From a virus: a stretch of 64,000 nucleotides of DNA. Position numbers and translations under genes: made by a program. The notes under the pieces were generated by a model. That model saw only the letters and a program-made list of their open reading frames with translations, ran no database searches and was not told the origin of the DNA. The stretch spans positions 1 to 64,000 of IMG/VR virus record IMGVR_UViG_3300034062_007329; one strand, 5' to 3'. Every line of letters begins with the position of its first letter. Within the stretch, counting starts at the first letter, position 1. Below are positions 24,036 through 26,447 of the stretch, in pieces.

Positions 24036-24734
24036 ATGAAAATAATTTATGATCATACGCATGGTTTTGGTAAAATGCGTGATCAAGCGTATATATACGC
24101 CCCAACAGGAGCCTTAGTTGAAGAAAAAGAGCATAAAGAAGCGCTGGAAACTGGTTGGTGTCCTTTATTAAATAATCTCTGGTTTCAAACAAGATCTACA
24201 AGAATAGATATAAAAAAGTATATACCAAATAAAAAGCTTTTAAAAAAAGCAAAACACATAAAACCATTTTATGGTGTATCACTTGATAATACAAAGAAAG
24301 CAATTTTTTTTGAGATATTCCAAAAATATATTAAATACAAAAAATTTAAAAGTCAAGATTACTCACTCGACGATATAATCAATACATCGAATGGCTACGT
24401 TTATTATGCATATGCAAATAAAATAATTGGTTTTTGTTTTTTCAAGATCTTAGCAAATAATATGTTTGCGGTTGAATTTGCTTGGGATTATGAAGATCCG
24501 AAGCTTTCTCTTGGAAAGTTAAACATACATTTTCTTGCTTACTTTGCTAAAATGAAAAAGTATGATTGTGTATACCTTTCTTCGGGATATGAAAGCTGCT
24601 CTATATACAAATCAGACTATGAAGGTTTCCAGTGGTGGACGGGAATGAAATGGTCAGAAGATGTTGAACACTTCAAGCGCCTGTGTTATAGTGATGATAA
24701 GGTGAAGATAGAGTTTGATTGGGAGAATATATGA
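24036..24734 (+). CDS. Aminoacyl-tRNA--protein transferase-like protein (ATE1/Bpt family)
   Basis: LETGW...STRID, WDYEDPKLSLGK, YLSSGYESCSIYKSDY resemble the ATE_C signature. Confidence 0.65.
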   Translation: MKIIYDHTHGFGKMRDQAYIYAPTGALVEEKEHKEALETGWCPLLNNLWFQTRSTRIDIKKYIPNKKLLKKAKHIKPFYGVSLDNTKKAIFFEIFQKYIKYKKFKSQDYSLDDIINTSNGYVYYAYANKIIGFCFFKILANNMFAVEFAWDYEDPKLSLGKLNIHFLAYFAKMKKYDCVYLSSGYESCSIYKSDYEGFQWWTGMKWSEDVEHFKRLCYSDDKVKIEFDWENI

Positions 24735-24772
24735 TTGACTATGCAGATGTTGTAGTAGATTTAGCTTGTTAA
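24731..24772 (+). pseudogene. Orphan 5' fragment of purA (MIDYADVVVDLAC*)
   Basis: First 12 aa identical to PurA at 25449; ATGA-coupled to the upstream gene. Confidence 0.85.
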
Positions 24773-24827
24773 AATGCTTATAATGGTCGTATGAACTACT
24801 TATTATATATGTCATGGAGGCTTTATA

Positions 24828-25442
24828 ATGAGTACAAAAAAATCTGGAATTTATCGTATTACCAATAAAGTAAATAATAAAATTTATATTGGTTCTGCCT
24901 ACAACTTATCTAATCGATTTTCTACACACAAATATTCTTTAAGAAATAATAAACATAAAAATCCACACCTACAAAGTGCTTGGAATTTATATGACGAGAA
25001 AGATTTTATATTTGAAATTCTTGAAATCGTAGAAGATAAAACAAAAATTATTGAAAGAGAACAATATTATTTAGATTTATATAACCCATGCGATAATTCT
25101 ATAGGCTATAATATTGCTAAAAAAGCTGGTAATACTGCTGGAGTTAAAGTATCTCTTGAAACAAGACAAAAACAAAGCGAATCAGCAAAAAAAAGACCAA
25201 AATATAAATGGACTGAAGAACAGAAACAAAATAGGAAAAAGACCCGCAAAGGTCAAGTAATGCCTTGGGCTAAATTAAACTGGGGGCTTGTAAACGAGAT
25301 AAGAAAGTTGTATACTGATGGCGTCTTCCAAAGAGAAATAGCAAAAAAATATAATTTGGCACAAACGACTGTAAGTGAAATTATAAGAAATGTAATTTGG
25401 ATCGATGAGTATTATGCCTACGAGCGTAGGAGAAACGGATAA
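24828..25442 (+). mobile_element. Free-standing GIY-YIG homing endonuclease
   Basis: SGIYRITNKVNNKIYIGSA, R and E (EREQYY), GYNI, NUMOD3-like segment, C-terminal HTH. Confidence 0.9.
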
Positions 25443-25448
25443 ATAATT

Positions 25449-26447
25449 ATGATAGATTATGCTGATGTAGTGGTTGATCTTGCGTATGGGGATTCTGGAA
25501 AGGGAAAAGTTACACATCATTTAGCTAAAGTTGGGAACTATACTCACGTAATCAGGTTTTCTGGAGGCAATAACGCTGGACACACGATTTACCACGAAGG
25601 CAAGAAGTTTATCACTCATTCTATTCCTTCTGGTGTATTTTATGGAATTCGAAGCATTATTGGACCTGGATGTGTACTTAATGTAGAGCATTTCTTTAAT
25701 GAGATGAAGGAGTTGGAAGATGGTGGTGTCAGGTGTCAGGGCTTGGTATTTATTGCACGAAATGCTCATATCATCACCGATGAACACGTTATGGAGGATC
25801 GACAAGATAACGTTATCGGGACAACAAAACGCGGCGTCGGTCAAGCCTATCGTGACAAGCACAGCCGCAAGGGCATACGAGCGGAACAGGTAGAAAAGTT
25901 AAAACCATACCTAATTGATATGTATGAGGAGTTTTATAAACCTAATCAAATTAGTCGTATCCTTTTTGAAGGCGCTCAAGGATTTGGTCTTGATATCGAT
26001 TGGGGAGATTACCCTTACGTTACTTCTTCTGGCTGCACTGTTGCTGCTGCAATTGCTAATGGAGTTCCTGCAAAGCGAATTCGCAATGTTTGGGGAGTTG
26101 CGAAAGCTTATGAAACGTATGTTGGAATGAAGAAATTTGAACCAGATGAACCCGTGTTTAAAACAATGAGAGAAATTGGAAATGAATACGGAGCAACAAC
26201 TGGTCGTCCTCGTCAATGCAATTGGGTCAATGCAAAAAATCTTTTTAAAGCTATCGATCTAAACGGAGCTAACAAGATTGTATTTAACAAGGTTGATATC
26301 TTGAGAGAGATTGGCTCTTGGAAGATCTATGATGAAGACGACAAACTTGTAGAGTTTAAGAGCGAAGAAGAAATGAAAACTTGGTTTGCTAATAAGCTCC
26401 CAAGATCAACTGAGATCTATTGGTCGGATTCACCGGAAAGACTATAA
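25449..26447 (+). CDS. purA: Adenylosuccinate synthetase (short form)
   Basis: YGDSGKGK, GGNNAGHT, IGTTKRGVG, EGAQGFGLDID, YPYVTSS, EYGATTGRPR, NKVD. Confidence 0.93.
   Translation: MIDYADVVVDLAYGDSGKGKVTHHLAKVGNYTHVIRFSGGNNAGHTIYHEGKKFITHSIPSGVFYGIRSIIGPGCVLNVEHFFNEMKELEDGGVRCQGLVFIARNAHIITDEHVMEDRQDNVIGTTKRGVGQAYRDKHSRKGIRAEQVEKLKPYLIDMYEEFYKPNQISRILFEGAQGFGLDIDWGDYPYVTSSGCTVAAAIANGVPAKRIRNVWGVAKAYETYVGMKKFEPDEPVFKTMREIGNEYGATTGRPRQCNWVNAKNLFKAIDLNGANKIVFNKVDILREIGSWKIYDEDDKLVEFKSEEEMKTWFANKLPRSTEIYWSDSPERL

Follow-up and report, generated by a model that had tools for sequence, protein, structure and literature searches.

Background

In T4-type phages, free-standing enzymes belonging to the GIY-YIG (SegA–G) and HNH (MobA–E) types of homing endonuclease move by intronless homing, in which flanking sequence is co-converted (PMC2988022; PMC2330249). 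These genes are usually intergenic and leave no duplicated gene ends behind (PMC2988022; PMC2330249), and MobE (in nrdA of Aeh1) and MobA (in T4 gene 39/60) split their genes into two working pieces with no end being replaced. A different outcome is known from fungal mitochondria, namely the mORF gene hybrids of atp6 in Allomyces macrogynus and of atp6, atp9, cox2, and nad3 in Glomus sp. (PMC3630166). In these, the native duplicated 3′ end retains 91–98 % base identity to a close relative and the inserted 3′ end has 64–81 % base identity with an about 100 % conserved protein, which was read as horizontal transfer (PMC3630166). Experiments in T4 have furthermore shown that one-sided homing, following extensive resection, ends in illegitimate joining at microhomologies (Parker et al. 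1999, summarised in PMC2988022). Here, we describe a stretch of 64,000 nucleotides of viral DNA (positions 1 to 64,000 of IMG/VR record IMGVR_UViG_3300034062_007329, hereafter the window) in which a GIY-YIG homing endonuclease gene separates a dead start of a purA-like gene from a second, working start of the same gene, an arrangement that is probably the scar of intronless homing that was homologous on one side only and left an illegitimate left junction.

The fungal hybrids are similar in that an endonuclease open reading frame (ORF) is enclosed by two versions of a gene end, of which the native one is closer in bases to the relatives; the analogy drawn in an earlier note on this DNA, according to which the endonuclease brought along a replacement gene start as in fungal mitochondria, is therefore apt (PMC3630166). 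Unlike these hybrids, however, the window belongs to a phage, it is the 5′ and not the 3′ end that is duplicated, the dead copy is the upstream one and runs into a stop codon, the endonuclease is free-standing with its own ribosome site instead of being fused in frame (the remnant ends in TAA), and the foreign tract appears to merge into purA by homologous recombination. With the Seg and Mob enzymes the locus shares a free-standing endonuclease gene (GIY-YIG, as in Seg) beside its target, presence or absence in relatives and flank co-conversion, and with T4 endonucleases the ribosome-site hairpins predicted next to a promoter-like motif in family members. As in I-TevI of the T4 td intron, a homologous GIY-YIG catalytic domain is joined to a C-terminal part, here putatively DNA-binding, but the window enzyme is not intron-encoded, its putative DNA-binding region matches helix-turn-helix models weakly and its target gene is a different one. 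As far as the summary of the T4 one-sided homing work goes, homology on one side, long resection and a non-homologous junction would predict exactly this product, although that system relied on an intron-encoded enzyme in a construct made in the laboratory and the products considered here are natural ones deduced from sequence alone. A literature search turned up no phage for which the replacement of a gene start had been published.

Two starts of one gene

The dead start reads ATG ATT GAC TAT GCA GAT GTT GTA GTA GAT TTA GCT TGT TAA (24731–24772), its 12 codons encoding MIDYADVVVDLA. The working start at 25449 reads ATG ATA GAT TAT GCT GAT GTA GTG GTT GAT CTT GCG and continues with TAT GGG GAT TCT GGA AAG GGA AAA, that is, YGDSGKGK (Table 1). 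The two 36-base starts have 27 bases in common, all nine differences are synonymous and 12 of 12 residues are identical, so that the sequence agrees in every detail with the earlier note, which had described identical residues with 8 of the 11 non-ATG codons synonymously different. The duplication is beyond chance, with a local alignment score of 38 as compared to a shuffle mean of 19.7 (standard deviation 2.6, maximum 27). At the dead start, the TGA stop of the upstream gene (ORF 24036–24734) shares bases with the old purA ATG at 24731 in an ATGA overlap, and the old ribosome site GGGAGA is retained. The working start, on the other hand, follows the endonuclease stop after 6 bases, and its nearest AGGAG is distant (16 bases upstream). 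Over most of the endonuclease gene the G+C content is 0.24–0.27, versus about 0.40 in purA.

Table 1. Features of the interrupted purA locus, in positions of the window.
Feature	Coordinates	Strand	Description
Upstream resident gene	24036..24734	+	232 amino acids, weakly ATE_C/arginyltransferase-like
Dead resident purA start	24731..24772	+	12 codons (24731–24766), then TGT TAA
Cassette leader	24768..24827	+	55 bases after the dead-start stop; GGAGG ribosome site at 24816–24820
GIY-YIG homing endonuclease gene	24828..25442	+	free-standing, 204 amino acids
Working purA-like gene	25449..26447	+	332 amino acids, short form

The empty site and the origin of the remnant

A purA-protein scan of viral contigs gave 358 relatives, and 80 of these were retained (loci are referred to by L numbers where needed). 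In the closest of them, L002, whose purA product shares 82 % amino acid identity and whose synteny with the window extends over twelve genes, there is a single purA start, to which the upstream gene is joined without any insert by an ATGA overlap, and no member of the endonuclease family was found in the record (168 kb, 92 % complete). The endonuclease is thus present in one and absent from the other of two syntenic genomes at the same locus, and the endonuclease-free relative does not carry both starts. The dead start plus T24767 is colinear with the uninterrupted L002 allele, and this colinearity is lost after 24767. Moreover, the L002 start agrees with the remnant in 33 of 36 bases and with the working start in 27 of 36, and each of the five endonuclease-free relatives (L002 to L006) is nearer to the remnant than to the working start. 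This identifies the first copy as the resident start, which, together with the same coupled arrangement in L002, bears out the proposal that the ATGA-coupled copy is ancestral.

Extent of the foreign tract

How far the foreign sequence reaches was assessed by the fraction of identical codons at residues conserved between the window and L002. This fraction is 0.555 (387/697) for eight flanking genes and 0.55 (108/195) for purA codons 81–332, and falls to 0.37 (25/67; Fisher p=0.005) for purA codons 1–80. Since the latter value lies at the saturation floor observed between unrelated members of this purA group (0.33–0.45), the foreign tract should comprise about 80 codons and not 12, and these first codons (about 25449–25690) would represent donor DNA that came in with the endonuclease gene. 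Co-conversion of flanking purA sequence, by which intronless homing is recognised, thus appears to have taken place at this locus.

This result alters the view of the working start given in the earlier note, in which its 12 codons had been regarded as recoded for resistance to cleavage. A designed recoding is neither shown nor needed, because the copies in two parallel cases (L184 and L031, see below) differ in amino acids as well; that the differences in the first 12 codons of the window are all synonymous can be ascribed to purifying selection between diverged homologues, and the codon usage of the working start has nothing unusual.

The gene bears the mark of a further exchange: codons 81–160 (25689–25928) show 88–98 % base identity and 89 % identical codons to L003, versus 65–80 % base identity in the rest of the gene, and L007 shares this patch with 74 % identical codons. 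Codons 81–160 are thus best seen as a separate recent recombination patch in purA.

The target gene and its neighbours

The downstream ORF matches adenylosuccinate synthetase (PF00709, E 5e-82) and contains both the GDxGKGK P-loop and the NAGH motif. It stays below the cut-off of all NCBIfam PurA equivalogs (267 vs 402) and of the PurZ model (135 against 300), and among PDB structures it matches PurA with E 5e-55 and PurZ with E 5e-19. Identity with PurZ of the aminoadenine pathway was considered and rejected, as the protein is closer to PurA in both models and PDB matches. By these profile and structure matches the target gene encodes a short PurA-like enzyme. Such PurA-like enzymes of about 330 amino acids are widespread in large uncultured phages (358 IMG/VR loci) and fall under every NCBIfam PurA/PurZ cut-off.

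The upstream gene shares 75 % amino acid identity with its L002 orthologue and resembles arginyl/leucyl-tRNA–protein transferases (Pfam ATE_C, E 2e-4; NF002346, E 1e-5; both far under cut-off). This gene also adjoins purA in L004, L005, and L008, as it does in L002, and lies downstream of purA in L007. The window record itself is an IMG/VR metagenome assembly of 78.8 kb with an estimated completeness of 35 %; all window genes lie on one strand, and an array of 16 tRNAs is present.

The endonuclease and its family

The 204-amino acid ORF is a GIY-YIG protein by both PF01541 (E 1.5e-14; 54.5 bits vs a cut-off of 22.6) and TIGR01453 (103.8 bits vs 56). Its catalytic domain (residues 5–98) matches the I-TevI structures PDB 1MK0/1LN0 with E 1e-10, and its C-terminal region gives matches to HTH_7 (E 0.005, below the Pfam cut-off) and to the helix-turn-helix family phrog_517 (E 4e-5). 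These matches suggest an N-terminal I-TevI-like catalytic domain followed by a helix-turn-helix-like, putatively DNA-binding C-terminal region. A protein search yielded at least 36 full-length family clusters with 53–94 % identity, across which G7, I8, Y9, Y20, G22, R30, H34, E78, and N95 do not vary and the C-terminal region keeps a strongly conserved TTVSEIIRN block. The identical protein occurs on 7 contigs, the longest of which measures 187 kb. A blastn search of the region against public phage genomes gave no relatives, only distant GIY-YIG matches.

The gene has its own start, a TAA stop, and a GGAGG ribosome site 7 bases before the ATG. A cmscan of 24500–25700 against Rfam at E up to 1 returned 0 matches, and only about 60 + 43 bases (~100 in total) around the gene are not part of an ORF, which is far too few for a group I ribozyme core. 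The description in the earlier note of a free-standing, intronless mobile gene is thereby upheld.

In 7 of 7 loci with readable context (the window, L103, L104/L105, L185, L183, and L184), a family member lies directly upstream of purA, with an overlap in the form of ATGA in L104, L185, and L183 and of about 20 bases in L103. In these loci the family is hence stably tied to one target gene. A family match in the L007 record was examined as a possible member at another target and rejected, as it is a more distant GIY-YIG gene beside a 474-amino acid ORF.

A further observation concerns L103, in which an IMPDH/GMP-reductase-family gene (L103:1192-2602) appears to be broken. Its C-terminal half (1973–2602) opens with an intein C-terminal segment (...GTIVHNS; weak Intein_splicing match) and is preceded by an ORF (1192–1983) for a NUMOD3 + DUF559 (Vsr-like) endonuclease, an arrangement resembling the "fractured gene" split inteins with free-standing endonuclease (PMC2677866).

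Parallel cases with longer remnants

The architecture of the window recurs with other remnant lengths. In L184, a purA remnant of 46 codons is followed by an endonuclease gene of the window's family and a full purA start; remnant and working copy share 81 % base identity and differ by 15 synonymous and 6 non-synonymous codon changes. In L031 and L032, which stem from two samples, a 55-codon purA remnant precedes an EndoVII-type gene (phrog_1035, E 4e-26), unrelated to the GIY-YIG family of the window, and a full purA. Here the remnant is 96 % identical in amino acids to L030 and only 70 % in amino acids and 60 % in bases to the adjacent working copy, and the working purA of L031 (its 5′ tract beside the endonuclease) belongs to another purA subtype than the remnant. 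From these comparisons, two unrelated endonuclease families appear each to have replaced the 5′ end of purA. At this locus (L031:3236-5005, and likewise in L032) the EndoVII-type gene encodes 181 amino acids without a Pfam match, and a DNA polymerase III alpha-like gene is located upstream. Regarding these relatives, and not the window, a likeness exists to the cyanophage homing endonucleases with an EndoVII motif of the F-CphI type in that the EndoVII-type gene adjoins its target (PMC6083498), although F-CphI targets psbA and no duplicated gene start has been reported for it (PMC6083498).

A 12-codon remnant was not detectable in L103, L104, and L185. Nor did local alignment give a significant result for short decayed remnants in L103, L104, L185, and L183, the match of L103 to L002, for example, scoring 37 as compared to a shuffle maximum of 39.

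The cassette leader

Between the dead start and the endonuclease, the leader of the window contains CTTATAATGG at 24777–24786, resembling the purA codons for R-Y-N-G, and a conserved element AATGGTCGTATGAACTACTTATTA at 24782–24805 that includes ACTACTTA at 24795–24802. An alignment of six family leaders shows AATGGTCGTRTGAACTAYTTATTA in all of them, with the ribosome site after it, so that ACTACTTA belongs to the conserved sequence of the mobile unit. The exact 8-mer ACTACTTA is not enriched in the window (4 matches vs 1.7 expected). The degenerate form ACTAYTTA is enriched, with 15 matches vs 5.0 expected, a number reached by 0 of 100 shuffles. Fourteen of these 15 sites are on the coding strand and several precede the start of an ORF or tRNA by a short distance; sites include 8434, 15837, 18465, 40453, 44170, 58063, and 63500. 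ACTAYTTA is thus plausibly a promoter-type signal of this phage, or more broadly may serve as a phage-specific promoter or processing signal; the late type to which the earlier note had assigned ACTACTTA would be a putative label.

Single-sequence folds place the ribosome site or AUG of the endonuclease in a hairpin with the ACTACTTA-type motif as its 5′ arm. The relatives have strong, significant hairpins of this kind (z -2.6 to -6.3), as opposed to a weak and non-significant one in the window (z -1.1), and RNAalifold on the leaders gave neither a shared hairpin over the ribosome site nor covariation. The predicted arrangement would recall the regulation of T4 endonucleases (PMC2988022). In L104 (L104:2945-2968) and L185 (L185:686-709), a strong leader hairpin surrounds CCGTTATAACGG, which is a perfect palindrome, and the two loci are distinguished by a compensating G-U change; besides being a purA relic, it may be a terminator or protein-binding site.

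On their left side, the leaders in L103, L104, and L185 end in (C)CGTTATAAYGG, in place of which the window has CTTATAATGG. Of the 15 occurrences of GTTATAAYGG in 1.27 Mb of related loci, 8 fall on purA codons 34–37, that is, on the R-Y-N-G codons just before NAGH. The R-Y-N-G-like leader motif may consequently be a relic of an older insertion that is carried inside the cassette; L184 carries both this leader relic and its own 46-codon remnant.

Probable position of the cut and of the original junction

In the earlier note, the position just before the P-loop had been taken as the insertion site of the element. This does not hold for the family, since the break in L184 lies at codon 46, before SGH, and that in L031 at codon 55; the P-loop junction is specific to this phage, and judging by the relic in the cassette the ancestral junction should have lain near codon 39, before NAGH. 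On the basis of the leader relic and of the L184 and L031 junctions, the original junction was probably near codons 39–56, around NAGH and not at the P-loop, and the cut is probably to be expected in the same region. A hint, post hoc, that carrier alleles may resist cleavage is that a non-GGT glycine codon together with a CAC histidine codon in NAGH occurs in 5 of 5 independent carrier alleles as compared to 22 of 78 endonuclease-free ones (p=0.003).

Proposed mechanism and alternatives

According to the scenario that we favour, a free-standing GIY-YIG family residing upstream of purA would spread by cutting the 5′ part of endonuclease-free purA genes in large uncultured phages, probably in the vicinity of codons 39–46, which encode the conserved NAGH. 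In the ancestor, the upstream gene would have shared an ATGA overlap with the start of purA, an arrangement that L002 still has. Upon cutting, the right-hand end would be repaired by homologous copying from an endonuclease-carrying donor, by which about 80 donor purA codons, the endonuclease gene and the leader would be transferred. The upstream neighbours of purA vary by lineage (an ATE_C-like gene, a gene for a small acidic protein or a DNA polymerase III alpha-like gene), so a cut recipient would often share homology with its donor only downstream of the cut. As the left side offered no homology that could be used, the newly copied strand may have been joined illegitimately to the resected 5′ end of the resident gene, with the outcome that the old codons 1–12 were left as a 13-codon dead ORF with a stop, followed by the cassette and a complete foreign gene start. 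One-sided repair of this kind would yield stubs of variable length. The working purA is probably expressed by read-through transcription and perhaps translational coupling via the endonuclease gene; because its AGGAG is distant and its start lies 6 bases after the endonuclease stop, it may depend on the selfish gene. The apparent recoding would simply be the synonymous divergence of the donor allele, which might in addition render the allele uncuttable.

Several points weigh against this scenario. No donor lineage was found in one single-protein and two alignment scans of viral contigs and one metagenome scan, and the closest family members with readable context, among the matches listed, are only 60–64 % identical. 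The left junction at 24767/24768 is without demonstrable microhomology, as no donor sequence is known, and the short remnant of 12 codons could also be an internal deletion of a once longer stub. The comparison that identifies the remnant covers 11 codons only (8/11 vs 3/11, Fisher p=0.086). These purA genes are almost saturated at synonymous sites, so that the boundary of the tract is only roughly located, and purA is mosaic for other reasons too, codons 81–160 being nearly identical to L003. Finally, cleavage activity, cut position, repair pathway, and immunity of the new allele are predictions drawn from comparing genomes.

The remnant has also been open to another interpretation, in which a precise element of 718 base pairs (24768–25485) inserted between codons 12 and 13, the recoded start was selected for resistance and the remnant represents a constant left homology arm. 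This would account for the fact that joining 24767 to 25486 restores an uninterrupted frame and that the remnant keeps its ribosome site and 12 residues; in addition, GATTTA-like words at a similar distance upstream of several family leaders might trace the same junction. A constant arm, however, is difficult to reconcile with L184, in which a member of the same family has its junction at codon 46, and with L103, L104, and L185, which lack a detectable 12-codon remnant. The excess divergence runs to about codon 80 and not 12, the relic at the left end of the cassette matches purA codons 36–39, and neither the amino acid differences between the copies in L184 and L031 nor the ordinary codon usage of the working start speak for a selected recoding. 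Altogether, we consider such an element unlikely. A similarly low likelihood is assigned to the idea that the cassette is a self-contained gene-start replacement element with nested insertion fossils (the R-Y-N-G relic) that makes purA expression depend on the cassette. Throughout the family, the purA start coincides with the endonuclease stop or is a few bases away from it, and the purA of the window has lost its former coupling partner. If this idea were true, silencing the endonuclease would silence purA as well, which would protect the selfish gene from being lost in the manner of an addiction.

The remaining explanations are far less probable. Duplicated sequence does flank the insert, as would be expected if the purA start had been duplicated locally in tandem and had diverged in place before the endonuclease landed in between; yet it is the dead copy, free to drift, that retains 33 of 36 bases in common with relatives, and the selected copy that has 9 changes, all synonymous. 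The excess divergence furthermore extends ~80 codons past the duplicated part, and the same architecture with foreign-type copies recurs in L031, which makes a tandem duplication very improbable. Slightly less credible still is a self-splicing intron or a bypass by which the first start would remain in use. The 24767–25486 join is in frame, and NCBIfam designates the catalytic domain as "group I intron endonuclease", but the missing Rfam match at E up to 1 and the ~60 + 43 non-ORF bases argue otherwise, and there is no need for splicing when a complete second start is maintained by purifying selection. That the duplicated start is a chimera of two strains is conceivable for a metagenome assembly; with the identical endonuclease protein on 7 contigs of up to 187 kb, and the same architecture in independent assemblies (L184 as well as L031 and L032 from two samples), we give it next to no credence.

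Implications

Homing endonucleases shape the mosaicism of phage genomes, and natural products of faulty one-sided homing have rarely been documented. The mechanism proposed here is of a known kind, and the value of the locus lies in a clear example and a testable system rather than in a new principle. For annotation, stubs and mosaic 5′ ends of this type explain spurious small ORFs and discordant gene trees. Summed up, the window, L184, and L031/L032 form a small natural series with dead starts of 12, 46, and 55 codons in one metabolic gene, indicating how a selfish gene may enter a neighbourhood without left-hand homology and yet not kill its target.

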